Shown here one piece after another: positions 3,419 through 51,554 of a stretch of DNA of 64,000 nt. The DNA lies in assembly GCA_963664405.1 (NCBI GenBank), contig OY761158.1, positions 5,248,001-5,312,000 on the forward strand. Reading direction: 5' to 3'. This DNA is from Thermoanaerobaculia bacterium. GTDB lineage: Bacteria > Acidobacteriota > Thermoanaerobaculia > Multivoradales > Multivoraceae. The position numbers and the translations under genes were made by a program. The stretch's first letter is position 1; each line of letters starts with the position of its first letter. The notes beneath the pieces are model-generated. The model saw only the letters and a list, made by a program, of their open reading frames with translations, searched no databases and was not told the DNA's origin.

Positions 3419-4561
3419 ATGAAGCTTGCGACACTCTTCGTGCTGGCGCTGGTTCTGTCCGCGGTGGCACTGGATCGGTATCCGCATCCGTGGGCCTGGA
3501 TCCTGCCGACATTCTCCGTGGTGCTTGCGCTGTCGGCGTGGCAGAGCCGCGGAAGGGTGCGCTTTGTGTTTCTCAATCTGGCTGCCGTTGTTGCTACTTT
3601 GGCAGCGGTCGAGCTTGCGTGGCAGCTCCCTTCACTCGGTGGCCAGAGCCCGGGGCGCGCCGGTAGCACACGGTCCGGCCCCTATTATCGGACTCTGCCC
3701 GTGTTGGGTTACGCCGGCGCCAAAGGAGCCTCTGTGTCGGAGACCGCGACTTTCGAAGAGGAGAAGATTTACGACGTCGTTTACACGACCGATGAGAACG
3801 GGTTGCGCATCTCAGCGCCGAGGAGCGGTCGTGAGGAGGCTTCGGTCCTCTTTTTCGGGTGCTCGTTCACTTTCGGCTGGGGGGTCCAGGACCAGGAGAC
3901 GCTGCCCTATCGGACGGGGGTCCTGAGCGCTGGGCGTTACGCGGTGAGCAATTTCGGGGTCATCGGCTACGGCCCTCATCACGCGCTGGCGACGATCGAG
4001 CAGGGCCTGGTGGAGGCTGCTGTCGAGGTGCGTCCTCGCTACGCTGTCTACTCCCTGATCGGTGACCACATATTGCGTGTCATGGGATGGGGACCTTGGA
4101 ACAATGTCAGCCCTCGCTACGCATTGAGTGACGCGGGAGGAGTCGTCTATCAGGGCCCCTTCGAAAGCACTCCGCCACCGGCCCCGAGAAACTTCGTCGA
4201 GGGTGTTACGAGACAGTTGGCGAGGTCAGCGGTGGTGAGCCGTGTTGCGCCGACTCTTGGCCAGCAACTGGAGATCGACCTGCTCGTCGAGATTCTCGCC
4301 CAGGCGGGTAGGCGCCTGGAAGAGCTTTACCCCGGTCTCGAGTTTCACGTGCTGGTTTGGGACCCTAACGATCGTCGAATCAATAGGGCCTCTCGCGCAC
4401 TCCGAGCTCGCGGTCTTCGGGTCCACCTGGTTTCGGAGGCGCTTCCAGGCTACGCCAAGGATGCCGACCGGTTCCACATTCCTCACGATGGCCACCCGAC
4501 AGCCCGCGCCTATGACGGCTTGGCGCGTTACCTGACGGCCGAGGTTCTGACCGATCGCTAG
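3419..4561 (+). CDS. Membrane-anchored SGNH/GDSL hydrolase-like protein
   Basis: N-terminal hydrophobic helices; FFGCSFTFG block I, NFGVIGYG block II, DGHP catalytic motif. Confidence 0.8.
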   Translation: MKLATLFVLALVLSAVALDRYPHPWAWILPTFSVVLALSAWQSRGRVRFVFLNLAAVVATLAAVELAWQLPSLGGQSPGRAGSTRSGPYYRTLPVLGYAGAKGASVSETATFEEEKIYDVVYTTDENGLRISAPRSGREEASVLFFGCSFTFGWGVQDQETLPYRTGVLSAGRYAVSNFGVIGYGPHHALATIEQGLVEAAVEVRPRYAVYSLIGDHILRVMGWGPWNNVSPRYALSDAGGVVYQGPFESTPPPAPRNFVEGVTRQLARSAVVSRVAPTLGQQLEIDLLVEILAQAGRRLEELYPGLEFHVLVWDPNDRRINRASRALRARGLRVHLVSEALPGYAKDADRFHIPHDGHPTARAYDGLARYLTAEVLTDR

Positions 4562-30776: not shown

Positions 30777-31820
30777 ATGGAATCAGGCACTTTCTTCAGC
30801 GACTATCGCTCGGATATGGCGCTACGGCGTATGCCTCTGGAGAAGCTAAGGCTCTTGCTCTTCGCCATCGCTCTGGTGATCTTCCCCTTTCTCGCCAACT
30901 CTTACTGGCTCAACCTCGCCAATCAGATCGCGATCTTCACCATCGGAGCTCTCGGCCTCAACATTCTGGTCGGCTACACCGGCCAGATCTCGTTAGGACA
31001 GGGAGCCTTCATGGCGGTTGGCGCCTATTCCAGCGGGATCCTCACCGTTCGCCTCGGTGTTCCCTTCTGGGCGAGCATCGTCATCGCCAGTTTCCTCACC
31101 GCCGCCGTCGGCTTGCTTTTTGGCCTGCCTTCACTGCGGCTCAAAGGCCTCTATCTGGCGATCGCGACTCTCGCCGCCCAACAGATCGTCGAGTGGGTGG
31201 TCACCCACTGGACCGCGCTGACAGGGGGTACCGAGGCCCTGGTCTTGCCGGCCCCAACACTCTTCGGCGAGCGTCTGAACACCGACTTCCGCTTCTACTG
31301 GATCGGCGTCTTGATCGCCTCTGGGAGCGCCCTGTTCGTGGCCAATCTCTTTCGCTCACGGGTGGGCCGGGCCTTCGTCGCCATCCGCGACCAGGACATT
31401 GCCGCCAGCGCCCTCGGCGTCAACGTCTTTCGCTACAAGCTGCTCAGCTTCGCGACTTCGTCGTTCTTTGTCGGCCTTGCTGGAGCGCTGGTCGCCCACT
31501 ACCGGACCATCGTCACCTGGGAGCGCTTTACTATCGAGACCTCGATTCTCTACCTGGCGATGATCATCATCGGCGGCCTGGGGACGATCAGCGGGTGCTT
31601 TTTCGGGGCCGCGTTCATGGTCCTGCTGCCGGCGACGATCAACACGGTCGGTAGGAGCCTGCAGTCGTCGGCGCCAGCGGTGGCGGCTATTCTGCCTTCA
31701 GTGCAGCTAGGCGTTTTCGGGCTGGTAATCATCCTCTTTCTGGTTCTCGAGCCCGAGGGCCTGGCCAAGCTCTGGCGCAACGTCAAGGACTACTTCCGGG
31801 TCTGGCCTTTTTCTTACTGA
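30777..31820 (+). CDS. Liv-type ABC permease (LivM-like)
   Basis: GYTGQISLG, RLKGLYLAIATL, GRAFVAIRD, IIGGLG, EPEGL. Confidence 0.92.
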   Translation: MESGTFFSDYRSDMALRRMPLEKLRLLLFAIALVIFPFLANSYWLNLANQIAIFTIGALGLNILVGYTGQISLGQGAFMAVGAYSSGILTVRLGVPFWASIVIASFLTAAVGLLFGLPSLRLKGLYLAIATLAAQQIVEWVVTHWTALTGGTEALVLPAPTLFGERLNTDFRFYWIGVLIASGSALFVANLFRSRVGRAFVAIRDQDIAASALGVNVFRYKLLSFATSSFFVGLAGALVAHYRTIVTWERFTIETSILYLAMIIIGGLGTISGCFFGAAFMVLLPATINTVGRSLQSSAPAVAAILPSVQLGVFGLVIILFLVLEPEGLAKLWRNVKDYFRVWPFSY

Positions 31821-31854
31821 ATTCTGGGGTGGGGGTACCACCCCAGAATTCAGT
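31816..31854. repeat. Perfect 17-bp inverted repeat overlapping the livM-like stop; start of the repeat array that the IS split
   Basis: ACTGAATTCTGGGGTGG-GGGTA-CCACCCCAGAATTCAGT. Confidence 0.9.
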
Positions 31855-31872
31855 CGCACATGGTGTTACCGG

Positions 31873-32229
31873 CTACGAGAAAGCGCACTTAGTTGGCTGC
31901 GAGTCGGTTTTTTGTCCCCGCGAGGCGTGACTCAGGGTGTGGCGCAGATAGTCGAGGTACCCCTCGGGGGGTGGCGTCGTGGGGAGTTCTCGGAGGATGG
32001 GGAGAAAGTAGGCGAGGGATCGGATGGGCTGGAGCTTTGGTAGGCGCGGATCTCGGCATGCGCGTCGGGCGGAGCCGAGGAGGAGGGCGGCCTGGAGGAC
32101 GGTGAGAGGCAGGTCTTGGTCGAAGAGCTGGTCGACGATGACGCGGTCGCCGTGGTGGAAGCGGTGCGGGGTGTCGGGAAGGAGTCGATAGAGGCGGAGG
32201 AGCTGGCGCCGATAGTGGCTTCGGGTCAT
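31873..32229 (-). CDS. IS-encoded hypothetical protein downstream of istB
   Basis: ATG overlaps the istB stop (ATGA); helical protein with IRSLAYFLP motif; ends inside the terminal IR. Confidence 0.7.
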   Translation of the reverse strand: MTRSHYRRQLLRLYRLLPDTPHRFHHGDRVIVDQLFDQDLPLTVLQAALLLGSARRACRDPRLPKLQPIRSLAYFLPILRELPTTPPPEGYLDYLRHTLSHASRGQKTDSQPTKCAFS

Positions 32230-33020
32230 GAGCGTCGTCGTGCTGCGCTCCGCCTTTTGGCGCGGTCCTTGGCCTTTTTTTCAGCAGCCTCCTTGGCCTC
32301 CTTGCGGCGATAGGAGTTAGCCTCGATCTTGACGATCTCGGCGTGGTGGGTGAGTCGATCGACGAGAGTGACGACGCAGGAGGCGTTGGGAAAGACCTCG
32401 GCCCATTCGGCGAAGGGCTTGTTGGTGGTGAGAAGAATGGGCTTGTTGCCGTATCTCCTGGAGACGACCTCGAAGAGGAGATCCGCGTGGCGGTGGTCGT
32501 AGGAGAGATAGCCGAGCTCATCGATTGCCAAAAGCGAGGGTCGGGTGTATTTGGAGAGCCTTCTCTGGAGCGCCGAGGGGGTTTCCTGGACGGCGAGATC
32601 GTTGAGCATGTCGGAGGCGGTGACGAAGCTGGCGGTGGCCCCTCGTTGCAGCGCCTGGTAGAGGAGGTTCTTGGCAATCATGGTCTTGCCGACACCGTTG
32701 GGTCCGAGGAGGATGACGTTGGTGATGTCGTCGAGGAATTGGAGGGTGAGCAGATCCTGGATCTGCTCGCGGTCGATGCGCTGGGGCCAGGAGAAGTCGA
32801 AGTCGGCGATGCTCTTGAAGAGCCCGACGCGGCTGGTGCGGATGCGCCGTTCGAGGCTGCGCCGTTTGCGCTCGGCCTCTTCTTTGCGCAGCAGCTGTTC
32901 GAGCCAGGGCTGTTCTCGGTAGGTGCCCCAGTCGTCGACGAGGGCGTAGAAGCCGAGGGATCGGGCGAGCTCTCGTAGTGGTTCGTCAGGGATCGTTGGA
33001 CTCTTCCTGGGTCGGGCCAT
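32226..33020 (-). CDS. istB: IS21 helper ATPase IstB
   Basis: DFDFSW, GPNGVGKT Walker A, LLAIDELGY Walker B, TTNKPF.EW, DRLTHH. Confidence 0.95.
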   Translation of the reverse strand: MARPRKSPTIPDEPLRELARSLGFYALVDDWGTYREQPWLEQLLRKEEAERKRRSLERRIRTSRVGLFKSIADFDFSWPQRIDREQIQDLLTLQFLDDITNVILLGPNGVGKTMIAKNLLYQALQRGATASFVTASDMLNDLAVQETPSALQRRLSKYTRPSLLAIDELGYLSYDHRHADLLFEVVSRRYGNKPILLTTNKPFAEWAEVFPNASCVVTLVDRLTHHAEIVKIEANSYRRKEAKEAAEKKAKDRAKRRSAARRRS

Positions 33021-34494
33021 CGTCGTTGCCTCCAAGTTGGTCGTAGTCCTCGAGGTTGTGCGGTCTCACGGAGAGATCTCGCTGTTGGAGCTCCTGGCTG
33101 AGCGGCACCGGTAAAGCCGGGGGCTGACCGAGGCCGCGCTGGTGCCGTTCGAGTAGGAGCCGGACGGACTGGAATCGCGGTGCGTGGTTCAGGAGCGCTT
33201 CGCGCACGGCTTTGTCGAGTCGCTGGGGGCCGTACTGGCGCAGGAGTCGGAGCAGGCCGGCGGTCTGCGTTCCGAGGTTCTCGCCTCGCTCGGCGAGCTG
33301 CTGCATCAGCTCTTCGCATCGAGGCACAGCGGAAAACAGCCGATGGAAGCCCCGGTGTCGTCGGGCCCTGCGTTTGTGAGCGAGGAGCTCCTCGAGGTGT
33401 TGAGGATCGAGGATCTGCTCGCCCCGGGAGTACGAGCGAGGGTGCTCGGCGAGGAGCTCCTGGCCATCGAGGATCCGCACCCGATGCTCGCTGGCGAGGA
33501 GCGTGACGGTCCTCTGCACATGACTGTGCGGCACCGAGTAGTCGTTGAGGTCGAAGCGCACGATCGGCGTCTTTCTGACCTTGATCTCCAGTCGCAGGTC
33601 GGTTTCGAAGTCGTCTCCGGGAAGCTCAAGCAGTCGAGGTCGTTCCTGGGCCAGGGCGCTTTTCACGGTTCGCTGTCGGTCCTGCGGCCAGGGTCTGCGC
33701 TGCGACCTCTGGCACCATTCCAGGACCTGCCGATTCAGACGATCCAAATCGCTCACCGTTCGGGCGCCGAAGAACGAGCTTCGCAGGAAGCGGATTGCGC
33801 GCTCGACGCGGCCTTTCTCATTTCCCCGAGCCACCGCGGCGACGGTGGGAAGGAAGCCGTAGTGGCTGGCGAAATCGAGCAGCACGGGATGGAAGCGCAC
33901 CGCGGTTCCCTGCCGCTCGATCACCGCGGTTCGCAGGTTGTCGTACAGAACGGTCCTGACGACGCCGTCGACGTAGTGGAAGGCCAGCTGGTGAGCGTGC
34001 AAGAAGGTTTCGAGACGAGTGTCGAGGGTGAAGTGCACGAAGACCGTGCGCGAGAACGACAGCACGAAGACGAAGGCATAGAGCCGACGATGTGCCCGGC
34101 CGACGCGGAGCCGACCGAAGTGGCCCCAGTCGACCTGCGCCTGCTCTCCTGGCAGCATGCGCAGCGAGAGAAACGCCTCGCGCTGGGGCTTCGGTCGCAT
34201 CGAGGCCACCAGGTGGCGAAACTGATCCGGGCCTCCTGGATAGCCGCGCTCCACCACCATGGTGTAGAGACGGCTCGCCGGCAGTCGTGGGTAGGTCCCG
34301 AGCACCTGCTCGATGAACGGCAGGTAAGGATCGATCATCCTCCCTCGTCGCTGCTGGGGTAGCACGCCGGACTTCTCCAGCGCCCGGCGCACGGTTGAGG
34401 GGTGCAGCTGTAGCTGTCGAGCGATCGTGCCGACTTTCCACTTCTCGACCAGGAACAGACGACGGATCTCCCCGCGCAGCTGTGCGTCGATCAC
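32986..34494 (-). CDS. istA: IS21 DDE transposase IstA
   Basis: N-terminal HTH, PGEQAQVDWG, LSFSR, YDN, EKGRVER, FDLNDYSVP; GTG start at 34494. Confidence 0.95.
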   Translation of the reverse strand: MIDAQLRGEIRRLFLVEKWKVGTIARQLQLHPSTVRRALEKSGVLPQQRRGRMIDPYLPFIEQVLGTYPRLPASRLYTMVVERGYPGGPDQFRHLVASMRPKPQREAFLSLRMLPGEQAQVDWGHFGRLRVGRAHRRLYAFVFVLSFSRTVFVHFTLDTRLETFLHAHQLAFHYVDGVVRTVLYDNLRTAVIERQGTAVRFHPVLLDFASHYGFLPTVAAVARGNEKGRVERAIRFLRSSFFGARTVSDLDRLNRQVLEWCQRSQRRPWPQDRQRTVKSALAQERPRLLELPGDDFETDLRLEIKVRKTPIVRFDLNDYSVPHSHVQRTVTLLASEHRVRILDGQELLAEHPRSYSRGEQILDPQHLEELLAHKRRARRHRGFHRLFSAVPRCEELMQQLAERGENLGTQTAGLLRLLRQYGPQRLDKAVREALLNHAPRFQSVRLLLERHQRGLGQPPALPVPLSQELQQRDLSVRPHNLEDYDQLGGNDDGPTQEESNDP

Positions 34495-34498
34495 GCCC

Positions 34499-34894
34499 CT
34501 ATCTCCGTCGGCAACGACGAAAGCTCGTTCGCACAAACTCTCGGCAGGCCTCTCCACACTGCATGCATCGCGGATTCCTCGGGTCGTAGCGCACTTCGCG
34601 CCTCGGAGTCTCGATCCGACACAGTGTCCTCCCCGAAGTACCGCCTGGGGTACCCTGATGCGTCACTTTCTCTGCCCGCTCGCGCTGGCGCCGACGGTAG
34701 CGGGCCTGACGGGCGGCATGACAATGCCGACCTCGGAGGCTTCGCTGGTACCGATGGCCGGCCGCCCGAGTCGATTCCCGACGAGCCACCAGAGCACAAG
34801 CCCGGCAGTAACGCTGGCCACGGTCACAGTGCGAGCACAGCGAGATACGCCGACGGCATCGAGCACAGTCGAAGAGTCGGTAGTCCGGTCGCAT
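34499..34894 (-). CDS. IS-encoded Cys/Arg-rich putative Zn-binding protein upstream of istA
   Basis: GGGAGG RBS; CARC..CSHCDRGQRYCRAC, AARQARYRRR, C-terminal CMQCG; stop 4 nt before the istA start. Confidence 0.75.
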   Translation of the reverse strand: MRPDYRLFDCARCRRRISLCSHCDRGQRYCRACALVARRESTRAAGHRYQRSLRGRHCHAARQARYRRRQRERAEKVTHQGTPGGTSGRTLCRIETPRREVRYDPRNPRCMQCGEACREFVRTSFRRCRRR

Positions 34895-35253
34895 CGTCGC
34901 CTCCCATTCGACGACGACCCCGACTCTCTGCCATACTGCAAGCGCAGCTAATGCTGCGGTTTGGGGCAGAGCCCGGGGCGTTTTCTACTTCGCTTTCCCG
35001 GGCTCTCGCCGTCTCTGGTCGGCCTGCTCTATCAGAGCAGAGCCCGCACTGCAAAGCCCTACACCGACTCACGCATCTCTTCCGACCGCAAACACGCCGC
35101 CGGGACCACGCACCCGGACCGCCGTTCCGGCGGGATGATGTCGCCCTTCCTGAAGAAGGCCTAGCTTTCCCGCGGTCGCGAAGCCCTCAGCTCACTCCAT
35201 CCCGGAAACTGCGCTCGCAGCCAACGGGATGCGCTTTCTCGCAGCCATCAACA

Positions 35254-35702
35254 CATGGCGCCGCGGACGGCGCTGCCGTCCTGCCGGACGGCTCTCAGGC
35301 GTTGTCGGGCGTGCCCCCACCCCCGGATTCAGTAGCACATGGCGCCGCGGACGGCGCTGCCGTCCTGCCGGACGGCTCTCAGGCGTGGGCGGGCGTGCCC
35401 CCACCCCCGGATTCAGTAGCACATGGCGCCGCGGACGGCGCTGCCGTCCTGCCGGACGGCTCTCAGGCGTGGGCGGGCGTGCCCCCACCCCCGGATTCAG
35501 TAGCACATGGCGCCGCGGACAGCGCTGCCGTCCTGCCGGAGGGCTCTCAGGATTGGGCTGGCGTGCCCCCACCCCAGGATTCAGTCGCACATGGCGCCGC
35601 GGACAGCGCTGCCGTCCTGCGGGACGGCTCTCAGGATTGGGCGGGGGGGGGTTGTTCCCCACCCCAGGATGCAGGCCCGCATGGCGCCGCGGACGGCGCT
35701 GC
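35254..35702. repeat. 84-bp palindromic tandem repeat array (REP/BIME-like), about 5.3 units
   Basis: Units start CATGGCGCCGCGG at 35254, 35338, 35422, 35506, 35590 and 35680 (partial); internal hairpins GCGCCG-CGGA-CGGCGC and GCCGTCC-TGCC-GGACGGC. Confidence 0.95.
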
Positions 35703-35755
35703 TGGGTATACTCTGGCGCTTGCTACTGATCGCTCGACCCGAGGAGGATGAGCCC

Positions 35756-36937
35756 ATGCGTGGGACTTTCGTGAGTATTCTCGTTGTCTGCACTTTGGCG
35801 TTGACTCTCGGCTGCGGAGGCGGGGCTACCGAGAACGAAAACACCATCAAGATCGGCGCCATCTTCGATCTGACCGGGCCGACCTCCGACGTTGGCACTA
35901 CGTTCTCCGAGGGGATTCGCGACTTCTTCGAGTGGACCAACGCCCAGGGCGGGATCGAGGGGCGTCCCGTCGAGCTCGTGTTTCAGGACTATGGCTACAA
36001 GGTCGACGTCGCTGAGCAGCTGTACTCCCAGTTCGTGCAGGAGGGAGTGGTGGCCTTCATGGGCTGGGGGACCGGCGACACCGAGGCGCTCCGCGGGCGT
36101 ATTGGCGATGACCAGATGCCCTTCACCTCGGCGTCCTTCTCCCACGTTCTGGGCGATCCGCAGCAGGCTCCCTACAACTTCCTCTTGGGAACCAGTTACA
36201 GCGACCAGTTCGTCATCATTCTCGACTGGATCTTGGAAAATCATCCGGGCCCAGAGGCGCCATCGGTGGCTCTTATGCACGCACCGAATCCTTTCGGACT
36301 TTCACCCTATGAAACGGGGGGAAGAGACTACGCGGCCCGGAAGGGAATCGCGCTCGAGGCTCATGAGATGCCGCGTGGAAGCATGGACTACACCGCCGAG
36401 CTCACCAGGATCCGCCAATCGGGCGCGAACCATGTCGTTTTCCAGAACACCTCCGGTCCGGCCGCTGTCGCGATTCGCAATGCCAGGGACCTGGGCTTCG
36501 AACCGAGTTTTTTCTGCCTCAATTGGTGTACGAATGAAGTGCTTACCGAGTTGGCTGGAGATGCAGCTGAAGGAGTCATGGGCTCAGTCTCGTACTCTCT
36601 GCCGGGTGAGGGCATCGACGGCCTCGACGCCGCGGTGGCTTTCCTCGAGGCGAAGGGCAGCTCGATCGAGGAGAAAGGCCTTCTCTACGGCCAGGGCTGG
36701 ACAATGATGTCGGTCATGTTCGAAGGTATTCGACGTACGGTGGCCGCTGGGCAAGAGCTCAGCGGAGCGAACATCAAAGCGGCCTACGAGTCGATGCGCG
36801 ACTTCGAGACCGGAGGCGTGACCGAGCCGATCACCTTTTCCGCGGAAGAGCACTACAGCATGCGCAGTATGCGCATCTACAAAGTTGAGAGCGGAAAGTG
36901 GCAGCAGATGACGGATCTTCGATCCACCGATTGGTAG
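35756..36937 (+). CDS. Liv-type ABC substrate-binding lipoprotein
   Basis: GAGGAG RBS, LTLGC lipobox, IKIGAIFDLTGPT, GGIEGRPVEL, DYGYK. Confidence 0.9.
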   Translation: MRGTFVSILVVCTLALTLGCGGGATENENTIKIGAIFDLTGPTSDVGTTFSEGIRDFFEWTNAQGGIEGRPVELVFQDYGYKVDVAEQLYSQFVQEGVVAFMGWGTGDTEALRGRIGDDQMPFTSASFSHVLGDPQQAPYNFLLGTSYSDQFVIILDWILENHPGPEAPSVALMHAPNPFGLSPYETGGRDYAARKGIALEAHEMPRGSMDYTAELTRIRQSGANHVVFQNTSGPAAVAIRNARDLGFEPSFFCLNWCTNEVLTELAGDAAEGVMGSVSYSLPGEGIDGLDAAVAFLEAKGSSIEEKGLLYGQGWTMMSVMFEGIRRTVAAGQELSGANIKAAYESMRDFETGGVTEPITFSAEEHYSMRSMRIYKVESGKWQQMTDLRSTDW

Positions 36938-50328: not shown

Positions 50329-51554
50329 TCACCCGGTTTCTGCTGGGTGCGGAGGTTGACCGTCTCCCGGCGAAGCTTGTCGATCTTGGCGCGGATCTCT
50401 TCTTCGCGATCCTTGCGCCACTGATTGAAGTCGATGAGCTCGCCGCCACGAATCAGGTGAATGCGAGGGAACTTCTGCACGTTCCCGTCCTCGTCGAACT
50501 GGATGTTGCCGGCTACACCTGCCAGTGGCTCGATCGCTCTCATCCCTTTGAGCAGCTCCTGGGGCAGCGTGTTTGCGGCCTTCTTGAGGGCGGCGGCGAA
50601 GGCGAGTATCGAGTCGTAGGCATGTCCCGAGTAAAAGTCAGGGCCGACTCCGTACTTCTCGCGGTAGGCATTGACGAACCCGGCCATCGGCTCTTCTTCA
50701 CTCTTGGTGTCGAAGATCGGGATGGTGAGATATACGCCATCGGCGTTCTGGCCCGCCTCGGCGATCATGACGGGGTGCGAGAACACCGAGGTGGTCATTA
50801 CCCACTCTTGCTTGCCTTCGGTTCGGCCGTAGCCCCGCTTGCGGAGGTGTTCGAGGAGGCCGATTATCTGTTTGCTGTAAGCCGCCAGATAGAGACCCGT
50901 GGGCTCGAGCGCCAGGGCTTGGTCGACGATCTCTGAGAGGTTCGAGCTGTCGGATGAGAAGTAGATGACTTCCTTGACGTTGCCGCCGTACTGGGCGAAG
51001 ACGGCCTTCAGGCCCTCGAGAAGGGAGTCGGTGAAAGCTCGGTCCTCGGCCGCCACGATGACGAGGTCGTTGACATCGAGAGTCTCGGTGGCGAAGTTGG
51101 CCATGGCGCTGGCCTGCTGCATGGCGGTGGGGACAACCCGGAAGAAGGTGCGGGAAATGCCGGAAAGCTCGTCGCTCAGAGCGGCGGGGGTGATGAAGAC
51201 CCTGCCCACCTCATCCGCCACCTTGGCGATGGCGAGAGCGTCCTCGGTAGTGGTGCCGCCAATCACCGCCAAGGCTCCGCTGCGGTAGAGATCGCTGGCG
51301 GCTTGGGCCGCTTCAGGGCCGCCACCGCTCCAGTCGGCGACCTCGAGGTGAACCGTGTAGGCAAGGTCCGGATCGGCTTGAATATGTTCGTAGCCGAGCT
51401 CGATGCCTCGGCGATACGACTCCGCTACCGGTTCGGAGACGATTGTCTCGTTGAGAACGATCCCGAGTGTGACTTCCTTCTTCGGCCCGCATGCGCTGAG
51501 TCCTAGGCCAAGGCTGAGCAGGGCCAGCACCGAATAGTTCGCTCTTCCCAGCAT
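50325..51554 (-). CDS. Type I periplasmic binding lipoprotein, tandem paralog of 49090-50328
   Basis: LSAC lipobox; shares EIVDQALAL.P.G.Y, FSHP, LKGMRA.EPLAGV.GN.QFDEDG..QKFPRIH with its neighbour. Confidence 0.85.
   Translation of the reverse strand: MLGRANYSVLALLSLGLGLSACGPKKEVTLGIVLNETIVSEPVAESYRRGIELGYEHIQADPDLAYTVHLEVADWSGGGPEAAQAASDLYRSGALAVIGGTTTEDALAIAKVADEVGRVFITPAALSDELSGISRTFFRVVPTAMQQASAMANFATETLDVNDLVIVAAEDRAFTDSLLEGLKAVFAQYGGNVKEVIYFSSDSSNLSEIVDQALALEPTGLYLAAYSKQIIGLLEHLRKRGYGRTEGKQEWVMTTSVFSHPVMIAEAGQNADGVYLTIPIFDTKSEEEPMAGFVNAYREKYGVGPDFYSGHAYDSILAFAAALKKAANTLPQELLKGMRAIEPLAGVAGNIQFDEDGNVQKFPRIHLIRGGELIDFNQWRKDREEEIRAKIDKLRRETVNLRTQQKPGE

Follow-up and report, generated by a model that had tools for sequence, protein, structure and literature searches.

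The window, a stretch of DNA of 64,000 nt, contains a complete, active insertion sequence of the IS21 family with four conserved genes. Besides istA and istB, it carries orf1 upstream of istA and orf4 behind istB. Both accessory ORFs are real, conserved genes under purifying selection. Orf1 and Orf4 are probably the halves of a single accessory module, which acts independently of the type of recombinase. The best overall explanation, a deep IS21 branch with four genes that is equipped with a recombinase-independent control or assembly module, is given an even chance of being correct.

A complete IS21-family element with four genes

The element and its parts are located as follows:

31859..31863, no strand: target-site duplication CATGG, copy at the orf4 end, read from the sequence
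31864..35253, genes on the minus strand: complete insertion sequence of the IS21 family (3,390 bp); ends set by 22 genomic copies and the inverted repeats
31864..31903, minus strand: terminal inverted repeat of the right end; contains GGCTRCGAG twice (31871-31879 and 31895-31903); overlaps the 3' end of orf4
31873..32229, minus strand: orf4, 118 aa, protein of five helices; start codon shares ATGA (32226-32229) with the stop codon of istB
32226..33035, minus strand: istB, AAA+ helper ATPase (PF01695, NF038214); likely ATG at 33020; overlaps the end of istA
32986..34494, minus strand: istA, DDE transposase, 502 aa (NF033546, rve, Mu-transpos_C_2); GTG start at 34494
34499..34894, minus strand: orf1, 131 aa, Cys/Arg-rich; zinc-ribbon-like N-terminus, arginine-rich helical hairpin, C-terminal CxxC
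34895..35213, minus strand: long non-coding leader from the left inverted repeat to orf1; neither a sigma-70 consensus promoter nor an Rfam family detected
35214..35253, minus strand: terminal inverted repeat of the left end, in front of orf1; contains two GGCTGCGAG repeats (35238-35246 and 35214-35222)
35254..35258, no strand: target-site duplication CATGG, copy at the orf1 end, read from the sequence

The tips read TGTTACC... at 31864 and ...ATCAACA at 35253. The inverted-repeat arms (31863-31903 and 35214-35254) comprise 41 nt each, are imperfect and 80% complementary. GGCTRCGAG occurs exactly twice per arm, starting at 31871 and 31895 on the plus strand and at 35214 and 35238 on the minus strand. 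The original prediction of intact inverted repeats, a target-site duplication and four co-oriented genes was borne out: Repeats and duplication are present, the ends lie exactly where it had placed them, and orf1, istA, istB and orf4 are all encoded on the minus strand. A BLAST search against the genome yielded 22 near-full-length copies with 99.91-100% identity, one of which lacks the first 24 nt. Among the 21 complete copies, 18 are flanked by a perfect 5-bp duplication and one by a 6-bp duplication, while two have none. Since 22 copies are at least 99.9% identical and target duplications are found, the element is active.

IS21-family elements are bounded by terminal inverted repeats, contain subterminal sites in several copies and generate a short target duplication. 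Here, an IstA-type DDE transposase (244.8 bits against NF033546, cut-off 160), an IstB encoded directly behind it (210.6 bits against NF038214, cut-off 200; E 1.8e-62 against PF01695), repeated subterminal sites and a 5-bp duplication were found. IstB is a relative of DnaC and also matches NF005931 with E 7e-5, which is far under the cut-off of that model. The two-gene organisation with istA and istB only does not apply, as the element has four conserved genes. It thus differs from described IS21 members in how its genes are organised, whereas its core enzymes are those of the family. The longest istA ORF extends from 32986 to 34557, and a start at 34557 would overlap orf1 by 59 nt. The GTG at 34494 is preceded by GGAG 9 nt upstream, and the alignment of most homologues begins there. 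The previous statement that orf1 ends 4 nt before istA holds for this GTG but not for the longest ORF. The proposed coupling of the 118-aa ORF to istB by ATGA was confirmed at 32226-32229. The reading frame of orf4 enters the right inverted repeat with its last ~10 codons and stops only 9 nt away from the tip of the element.

In 15 related loci, the distance between left end and orf1 start is 234-388 nt. An Rfam search and a promoter scan of the element gave no match, and a scan for terminator-like structures found three sites, which is within the range of shuffled sequences (1.8 +/- 1.3). Three metatranscriptome runs, available as contigs only, contained one 247-nt contig without mismatches inside istB (depth 2.8). 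The remaining pieces on the element are diverged fragments that leave orf1 and orf4 uncovered, and such contigs are mute on expression. Many ~3.4-kb contigs in soil and sediment metagenomes are this element.

orf1 and orf4 are conserved across phyla

A word-indexed search returned 232 homologues of orf1 and 30 of orf4, and the orf4 profile matched 1,676 cluster representatives at E<=1e-3. Homologues of the accessory ORFs (orf1, orf4) were found at 286 and 467 genomic loci, and their protein-level identity across phyla is 40-55%. Median dN/dS values from 12 disjoint locus pairs are 0.28 for orf1, 0.21 for orf4, 0.14 for istA and 0.10 for istB; they are rough because dS exceeds 1 in most pairs. 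The values for both accessory ORFs are far under 1, i.e. both are subject to purifying selection.

The gene order is nearly fixed. orf1 is located directly upstream of istA at 72 of 75 assessable IstA-anchored loci and at 56 of 57 orf4-anchored loci. istA is the next gene after orf1 at 68 of 70 loci, istB precedes orf4 at 70 of 75, and the istB stop codon and orf4 overlap by ATGA at 47 of 57. The counts of 56 of 57, 68 of 70 and 70 of 75 score L102, L115 and L106 as misses solely through distance thresholds. Three loci (L157, L159 and L168) have no IstA or IstB match; at L159, a lone orf4 lies amid unrelated genes. L062 is split by another transposase-like gene, by eye IS110-like. The 72 of 75 IstA relatives with orf1 are opposed by none of five canonical controls, which corroborates the co-occurrence of orf1 with this IstA clade. 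It had also been stated that canonical IS21 members have two genes, and indeed none of these five matched the orf1, orf4 or 4b profiles (4b is described below) even at E<=10. Fixed synteny at hundreds of loci, translational coupling and the low dN/dS values of 0.28 and 0.21 sustain the earlier view that the extra ORFs are not cargo.

In an IstA tree from which the window's own IstA was left out, a branch of length 1.55 (99% support) lies between the orf1-bearing group and the five canonical members. In a second tree, in which the row of L170, the second element of the genome, was disregarded, the window IstA is placed outside the large Acidobacteriota orf4 clade and outside the clade with 4b or other proteins. 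The four-gene branch is large and has members in Acidobacteriota, Pseudomonadota, Myxococcota, Planctomycetota and Binatia, among others.

GC-rich DNA can contain chance open frames. Long spurious ORFs are numerous on both strands of the region, and in a Paraburkholderia plasmid, PGAP annotates an antisense 'hypothetical protein' across orf1. That orf1 and orf4 are such chance frames is nevertheless practically excluded: Identities of 40-55% between phyla, invariant motifs, low dN/dS values, confident folds and natural fusions speak against it, and the conservation data refute this reading. Automatic annotation can miss both genes or assign them to the wrong strand.

Neither ORF matches a PHROGs or PADLOC family, and sequence and fold searches found no recognisable HTH and no known regulator family. 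A search of a protein atlas returned nothing but 'hypothetical protein' clusters; the closest entries with a name, NinG (12%) and Cys_rich_VLP (14%), scored below 0.9.

Properties of Orf1 and Orf4

Orf1 contains 12 Cys and 37 Arg and has a pI of 11.5. An N-terminal CxxC-x6-CxxC-x6-CxxC array is followed by an arginine-rich helical hairpin (residues 31-76) and a CxxC at the C-terminus. Six cysteines (C20, C23, C30, C33, C110 and C113) never vary in 100 sequences, at least 90% of which also conserve C13; C10 is invariant in a set of 24 sequences. The resulting four conserved Cys pairs could hold two metal ions, so that Orf1 is a candidate zinc-binding protein. The model (pLDDT 81) comprises two beta-hairpins and the helical hairpin. 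Its most conserved surface, formed by RYQ..GR..HA.RQ..YR and KVTHQG, is invariant across phyla. Orf1 has no Pfam match at E<=1 and no NCBIfam family. PDB sequence profiles gave nothing usable (top match uS14, E 0.063), the same applies to Foldseek against PDB, and a wide fold comparison had no rows at Z>=5. A search for Orf1-IstA fusions turned up five homologues that are longer than Orf1 (231-274 aa) but no protein of the size of IstA, and no slippery site was found.

Orf4 carries the conserved motifs PIRSLAYF and GYLDYLR and has been modelled with pLDDT 88. It belongs to no Pfam or NCBIfam family, a PDB sequence-profile search had no usable match, and Foldseek against PDB returned nothing at E<=0.001. 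Residues 1-84 of the model align to the helical C-terminal portions of many AAA+ ATPases, which account for about 40 of the 50 rows listed (titles read by eye). The best match, 3thg_A (Z 7.1, rmsd 3.1, 80 residues), falls, like all other rows, below Z 8, the range where helical bundles can match by chance according to the tool's own warning. The same holds for DnaD domains (2i5u with Z 5.6, rmsd 2.5 and 66 residues; 2zc2 with Z 5.1) and for the helicase-loader protein G39P (Z 4.8, under chance-match level). The alignment to a region of Tn7 TnsC (7mbw, Z 5.4, rmsd 4.9) is weak. The C-terminus of Orf4 has no SSB-like tail. A complex prediction with IstB, Orf1 and Orf4 (Orf4 as partner), run without controls, gave scores of 0.28 and 0.18, where the mark is 0.32, and is binding evidence neither way.

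Orf1 and Orf4 occur outside IS21

Four natural proteins (P0167, P0180, P0194 and P0219, which are 46-54% identical to P0180) are fusions of Orf1 and Orf4. All four match the orf4 profile with 1e-31 to 1e-36, and the only two tried against the orf1 profile by hhalign matched with 99.7% probability and E 3e-25 and 3e-26. The fusions show that Orf1 and Orf4 share a function, but not necessarily that they are in physical contact when encoded separately. Fused or adjacent, Orf1 and Orf4 also neighbour a pair of genes for tyrosine recombinases, with neither IstA nor IstB present. At L254 and L256, the orf1-orf4 pair is followed by two Phage_integrase genes, and there is no IstA or IstB match. Furthermore, an orf4 homologue is the terminal gene of a distinct transposon that encodes an rve transposase and an AAA_22 ATPase; at L169, it follows the AAA_22 gene (hhalign 99.4%, E 1.7e-21). 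Homology between the orf1 profile and the Cys-rich first gene of this third element was not found.

Sister lineages have unrelated proteins in the position behind istB (slot 4), among them 4b (~72 aa), which is absent from the window, and a DUF3991 + Toprim_2 protein. 4b has an acidic run and ends with (L/P/V)PF-COOH; at least 90% of 26 sequences carry P71 and F72. An annotated plasmid SSB ends with ...SDDIPF, a tail of the same kind, and by the sequence criterion of an acidic run with (I/L/P/V)PF at the C-terminus, 4b qualifies as a putative mimic of the SSB C-terminal tail. The orf4 profile has no homology to the 4b family. New are the Orf1-Orf4 fusions, the pairing with tyrosine recombinases, the orf4 homologue in an rve/AAA_22 transposon and the interchangeable slot after istB.

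Elements with three unrelated recombination machineries share the module, as would be expected of portable cargo, and both families are unannotated. Orf1 and Orf4 might thus be selfish passengers or host-directed proteins, e.g. for anti-defence or addiction, without any part in transposition. We consider this rather improbable: Both genes have fixed positions split around istAB and are translationally coupled, orf4 overlaps the inverted repeat in a 3.4 kb IS under strong size constraint, PADLOC and PHROGs gave no match, and near-universal presence in a deep IstA clade is unusual for cargo.

Target selection, control of transposition or a link to replication

TniQ/TnsD resembles the present case in that a small Cys-containing protein is encoded alongside a DDE transposase plus an AAA+ regulator. 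Besides regulation, the original prediction had raised target selection of this kind, in which the extra ORFs would serve IstB as selector or adaptor as TniQ/TnsD serves TnsC. Orf1 is rich in Cys pairs, orf1 and orf4 are tightly coupled to istA and istB, and the weak alignment of Orf4 to TnsC would fit. On the other hand, 18 independent insertion sites have no consensus (maximum 0.62 bit per position), which concerns sequence preference only; Orf1 has no Pfam match and hence none to TniQ; the module is found beside tyrosine recombinases without IstA or IstB; and slot 4 is interchangeable. Target selection of the TniQ/TnsD type is therefore regarded as very improbable. Any accessory role tied to IstB-specific contacts is unlikely because of the tyrosine-recombinase pairing, the AAA_22 partner and the slot-4 swaps. 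Regulation is a candidate role of the accessory ORFs.

For the accessory proteins, we infer the following function, which is put forward tentatively: The Orf1/Orf4 pair might bind the DNA or the transcript of the element, i.e. its ends or its leader, and set the frequency of transposition as a control or assembly factor, not as a target selector. Orf1 with its pI of 11.5 would be the nucleic-acid-binding part and Orf4 its partner. Translational coupling would deliver both along with IstA and IstB, and the pair on the ends or the leader would determine the transposition rate. Speculatively, IstA bound to the right-end repeats, which are crossed by the orf4 frame, could exert feedback on orf4 expression.

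Several observations speak against this mechanism. Neither protein has a recognisable HTH or belongs to a known regulator family. Terminal repeats vary between lineages while the conserved Orf1 surface is invariant across phyla, which a conserved host ligand fits better than element-specific DNA. The slot-4 alternatives look replication-related (SSB-like tail, Toprim), which points away from simple autoregulation. Alternatively, the accessory proteins could tie the transposition intermediate to the replication-restart or gap-repair machinery of the host, with Orf4 and the slot-4 alternatives as host-facing adaptors and Orf1 as the DNA-binding part. The 4b family, the DUF3991 + Toprim_2 protein, the alignment of Orf4 to DnaD domains and G39P, the relationship of IstB to DnaC and the conserved Orf1 surface are in line with such a coupling. 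It is still regarded as unlikely, since every fold score is under the chance level for helical bundles, Orf4 has no SSB-like tail and is not homologous to 4b, and it is not obvious why tyrosine-recombinase elements would require replication restart. Equally unlikely is the broader proposal that Orf1-Orf4 and the slot-4 proteins are a portable host-replisome interface that recruits replication-restart or repair factors to DNA intermediates. If true, this would be a previously unrecognised, recombinase-independent layer of transposition into which unrelated mobile elements plug. Control of transposition by the Orf1/Orf4 pair is the preferred reading.

The significance lies in a deep, cross-phylum IS21 branch with two more conserved proteins outside any annotated family. 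The fusions and the reuse by tyrosine-recombinase and rve/AAA_22 elements offer a testable handle on a common accessory function. Profiles of orf1 and orf4 would help IS annotation in soil and sediment metagenomes.

Comparison with known systems

IS21 is a structural model for the activation of a transposase by an AAA+ helper. Canonical members (IS21, IS100, IS1326, ISBce16 and ISBcen28-like) share with the present element the IstA DDE transposase and, behind and overlapping it, the IstB AAA+ helper. Both also have terminal inverted repeats with TG at the start and several copies of subterminal sites, and both duplicate a short target. IS1 InsA, for which a zinc-finger-type motif is known, and IS3-family OrfA are small upstream IS regulators. 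Like them, Orf1 is small and basic, and its gene lies immediately in front of the transposase gene, to which it is coupled; unlike them, it has no homology to either, neither a slippery site nor a fusion with IstA was found, and it is taken to work with a second protein encoded at the far end of the element. The IS66 family also has conserved small accessory genes whose role is unclear. However, the proteins are unrelated, the transposase family is different, and in the present case the accessory genes flank a two-enzyme core. At one related locus (L172), an annotated IS66 'accessory protein TnpB' adjoins.

The Orf4 model aligns to AAA+ lid and DnaD-type domains at fold level only, in all cases with Z <8, where chance matches occur, and without a sequence match. 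Compared to Tn7-type TniQ/TnsD, Orf1 lacks a Pfam match, the element has no site preference, and the module is also found without an ATPase. Passages of PMC11208146 treat the IS21 system as two proteins, and a full-text literature search that covered passages of this paper and of PMC7371123 found no description of extra IS21 genes; ISfinder may name members of the clade. The five canonical elements examined have two genes, without room or match for orf1, orf4 or 4b. Their IstA proteins are 27-36% identical (over partial length) to that of the present element, compared to 47-56% for orf1-bearing relatives. Beyond canonical IS21, this clade has a gene in front of istA, a coupled gene behind istB and a leader of 234-388 nt.

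Ends, copies and activity of the element

The insertion sequence in the window is active and belongs to a branch of the IS21 family with four genes. Its extent and its two additional genes are as follows:

31864-35253: complete insertion sequence with the ends TGTTACC... and ...ATCAACA
34499-34894, minus strand: orf1, 131 aa, with 12 Cys and 37 Arg, pI 11.5
31873-32229, minus strand: orf4, 118 aa, its ATG located within an ATGA that also contains the istB stop

The arms of the element comprise 41 nt, are 80% complementary and each carry two exact copies of GGCTRCGAG with a spacing of 24 nt. Multiple terminal repeats per end are the typical IS21 layout. The 5-bp duplication CATGG is found on both flanks; together with the arms, it bears out the intact inverted repeats and target duplication of the original prediction. 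IstA scores above the cut-off of NF033546, the IS21 transposase model, and IstB matches NF038214 and PF01695. The single-contig 6.78-Mb genome contains 22 near-full-length copies with 99.91-100% identity. Among the 21 complete ones, 18 display a perfect 5-bp target duplication, one a 6-bp duplication and two none. Given this identity and the frequent duplications, the element has been recently and repeatedly active. Copies with 100% identity occupy the loci L009-L011. The two complete copies without duplication (2/21) are situated at 50517 and 6746429 of the genome contig (G000:C1). At 6746429, the right flank includes the target of the copy at 5444194 in uninterrupted form, pointing to either recombination among the copies or duplication of the region.

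The 18 insertion sites flanked by clean duplications have no sequence in common (at most 0.62 bit per position across 40 positions, n=18), and the GC content around them is 65% compared to 63% in the genome. The sequence around the other copies is unrelated to the window site. The original prediction had considered target selection or regulation, the former by analogy with the Tn7-type selectors TniQ/TnsD; such a TniQ-like role of Orf1 or Orf4 is very unlikely.

The window copy itself interrupts a unit in an array of 84-bp tandem repeats (35254-35671, remnant at 31836-31863) with five copies that match the reference unit at 62-100% identity. The array is bordered by a permease-like ORF (30777-31820) on one side and a periplasmic-binding-protein-like ORF (35507-36937) on the other. 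In the left flank, 31816-31832 and 31838-31854 form a perfect 17-bp hairpin.

orf1 and orf4 are real genes

The orf1 stop is located 4 nt ahead of GTG 34494, which is preceded by GGAG 9 nt upstream and coincides with the alignment start of most IstA relatives; for this start codon, the predicted end of the Cys/Arg-rich ORF 4 nt before istA holds. Likewise, orf4 is joined to istB as anticipated, start and stop overlapping in ATGA. Only 9 nt separate the orf4 stop from the element tip, so that the right inverted repeat supplies the last ~10 codons of the gene. In the Acidobacteriota orf4 clade, the stop is found 2-3 nt from the IS tip at 7 of 15 loci examined, and at 3 more of them the IR alignment starts a few nt inside the element; loci with the stop near the tip include L098, L101, L118, L120, L125 and L160. 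The sequence of the right inverted repeat therefore determines the conserved C-terminal tail ..TFxDDR.

For both proteins, searches of Pfam and NCBIfam (E<=1) and of PHROGs and PADLOC (E<=0.1) gave no match. A word-indexed protein search returned 232 homologues of orf1, every named one a 'hypothetical protein', and 30 of orf4, while the orf4 profile matches 1,676 cluster representatives at E<=1e-3 and 951 at E<=1e-10. Counting one genome per species, relatives are encoded at 286 (orf1) and 467 (orf4) loci. Alignments reveal the invariant Cys pairs C20/C23, C30/C33 and C110/C113 and a conserved basic stretch, RYQ..GR..HA.RQ..YR...KVTHQG, in orf1, and the conserved motifs PIRSLAYFxPV and GYLDYLR in orf4. 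Across 12 disjoint locus pairs, median dN/dS is 0.28 for orf1 (maximum 0.44) and 0.21 for orf4 (9 usable pairs) compared to 0.14 for istA and 0.10 for istB, all values being rough since dS mostly exceeds 1. Both ORFs are thus under purifying selection, as the original prediction entailed.

On a Paraburkholderia sp. PGU19 plasmid (L172), PGAP annotates a 'hypothetical protein' at locus positions 3462-3728 antisense to orf1, and orf1 is left uncalled. This is likely a systematic mis-annotation of the orf1 family in GC-rich genomes.

Predicted structures

The Orf4 model consists of five helices (pLDDT 88, pTM 0.79). In the Orf1 model (pLDDT 81), two beta-hairpins span the first Cys pairs and residues 31-76 form a long helical hairpin, followed by a poorly defined linker and the C-terminal CxxC. 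Foldseek found no match for either model at E<=0.001, and a wide structural scan yielded no row at Z>=5 for Orf1. In the same scan, Orf4 residues 1-84 were placed mostly on C-terminal helical parts of AAA+ ATPases. The best row is 3thg_A (Z 7.1, rmsd 3.1, 80 residues); DnaD domains (2i5u, Z 5.6, rmsd 2.5), a region of TnsC (Z 5.4, rmsd 4.9) and G39P (Z 4.8) were also aligned, all scores lying below the level at which helical bundles match by chance. These predicted fold similarities may serve as leads only.

Association with IstA and IstB

Relatives of the element were collected around IstA, orf1 and orf4; the IstA-anchored set comprises 80 loci from many phyla with 47-56% identity. Where 450 nt or more are available upstream, orf1 directly precedes istA in 72/75 of these loci, and istA directly follows orf1 in 68 of 70 orf1-anchored loci. 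In orf4-anchored loci, istB is found directly before orf4 (70/75) and orf1 is present in 56 of the 57 assessable cases. In 47/57 loci, istB and orf4 overlap by 4 nt. Exceptions in the anchored counts are due to the thresholds applied or concern remnants and interrupted copies. These counts are the co-occurrence check called for by the original prediction. Pure cargo is a slim possibility for both genes and fits poorly with their fixed, coupled and IR-overlapping layout, in line with the earlier preference for subunits over cargo.

By contrast, five canonical IS21-family loci (IS21, an ISBcen28-like element, ISBce16, one from Streptomyces and one from Azospirillum) yield no match to any of the three profiles (orf1, orf4 and 4b) at a cut-off as lax as E<=10; 4b is an alternative gene after istB. 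In the IstA tree, a branch with 99% support sets the orf1-bearing group apart from these five. A second IstA tree, read leaving out the L170 row, places the window IstA in neither the large Acidobacteriota orf4 clade nor the clade with 4b or other genes.

orf1 and orf4 in other mobile elements

The same genome harbours a second IS21-type element in about 8 copies (L170, G000:C1:395500-401500). Its IstA and IstB are 50% and 60% identical to those of the window element, and it likewise contains an orf1, 40% identical, and a homologue of orf4. A third element is of a different composition:

G000:C1:4399426-4403982: third element (L169), 3.56 kb, five copies

The first of its genes codes for a Cys-rich protein containing an HTH_23-like stretch. 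Also encoded are an rve transposase, an AAA_22 ATPase and a homologue of orf4 (hhalign 99.4%, E 1.7e-21), which overlaps the ATPase stop and terminates 34 nt short of the end of the element. The first gene was considered as an orf1 homologue and rejected, as it is not homologous to orf1. At L009/L089, a copy of the window IS is inserted into the transposase gene of an L169-type element.

Four representatives of the orf4 family (246-283 aa) carry the orf4 domain C-terminally. Their N-terminal halves align with each other and contain the conserved orf1 Cys motif CDRGQRYC; for two of these fusion proteins, hhalign against the orf1 profile gave 99.7% probability (E 3e-25 and 3e-26). The fusions do not stem from one assembly error because they are only 46-54% identical to the fusion protein P0180. 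At L254 (275-3329), two Phage_integrase tyrosine recombinase genes lie after a fused orf1-orf4 gene, and at L256 (736-3885) two such genes follow an adjacent, overlapping orf1-like/orf4-like pair. Both loci are contigs of ~4-5 kb and have no IstA or IstB match; here, a mobile element of a different kind employs the accessory module. A third locus, L287, looks degraded. P0293 (878 aa) has two tandem orf4-type domains C-terminally and lacks Pfam matches.

The two conserved accessory genes, which some elements carry as a fusion, also occur in other kinds of mobile elements, and orf1 and orf4 belong together without a need for IstA or IstB. We infer that Orf1 and Orf4 constitute one accessory module whose job is independent of the kind of recombinase. 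This module would bind to the DNA or transcript of the element itself, acting as a control or assembly factor that tunes transposition. We put this role forward tentatively.

The slot after istB

The slot after istB is interchangeable. Among 63 IstA-anchored loci with downstream room, orf4 was found in one, the element itself; 22 loci have 4b and 40 neither gene by profile.

L024:7678-7896 and 25 other loci: 4b (alignment A6)

4b is a family of ~72 aa, ATGA-coupled to istB in Proteobacterial members; on the Paraburkholderia plasmid, PGAP annotates it as 'hypothetical protein'. It was rejected as an orf4 homologue, the orf4 profile showing no homology to the 4b family. The very C-terminus of 4b consists of an acidic run and (L/P/V)PF-COOH and resembles the tail of an annotated plasmid SSB (L249:84-611, ending ...SDDIPF). 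Some of the 40 loci with neither gene have further short ...PF proteins. Also among the 40 are Alphaproteobacterial members with an ORF of 290-306 aa after istB (L176:4788-5684, similar in L188, L205, L233 and L239), of which the one scanned, from L176, matches DUF3991 and Toprim_2, and the Binatia members L184 and L206, in which a protein of 137-153 aa matching HTH_36 weakly occupies the slot.

The nearest rival of a control or assembly factor is that Orf1-Orf4 serves as an interface with the replication or repair of the host; it is suggested by the SSB-like tail and by the Toprim proteins in the slot. The conserved surface of Orf1, invariant while the terminal repeats vary by lineage, argues in the same direction. 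Such an interface is nevertheless rather unlikely, and a factor tuning transposition is the reading that we prefer.

Comparison with known IS21 elements

A full-text literature search, with ISfinder outside its scope, did not find the four-gene IS21 organisation. It likewise yielded no description of the two unannotated families or their natural fusion, and none of their recurrence alongside tyrosine recombinases and in an AAA_22-type transposon. Structural papers on IS21, in the portions of their text available, treat the system as IstA plus IstB. The core of the window element is that of an ordinary IS21-family element. The five canonical loci, however, possess two genes, whereas the window element has four.
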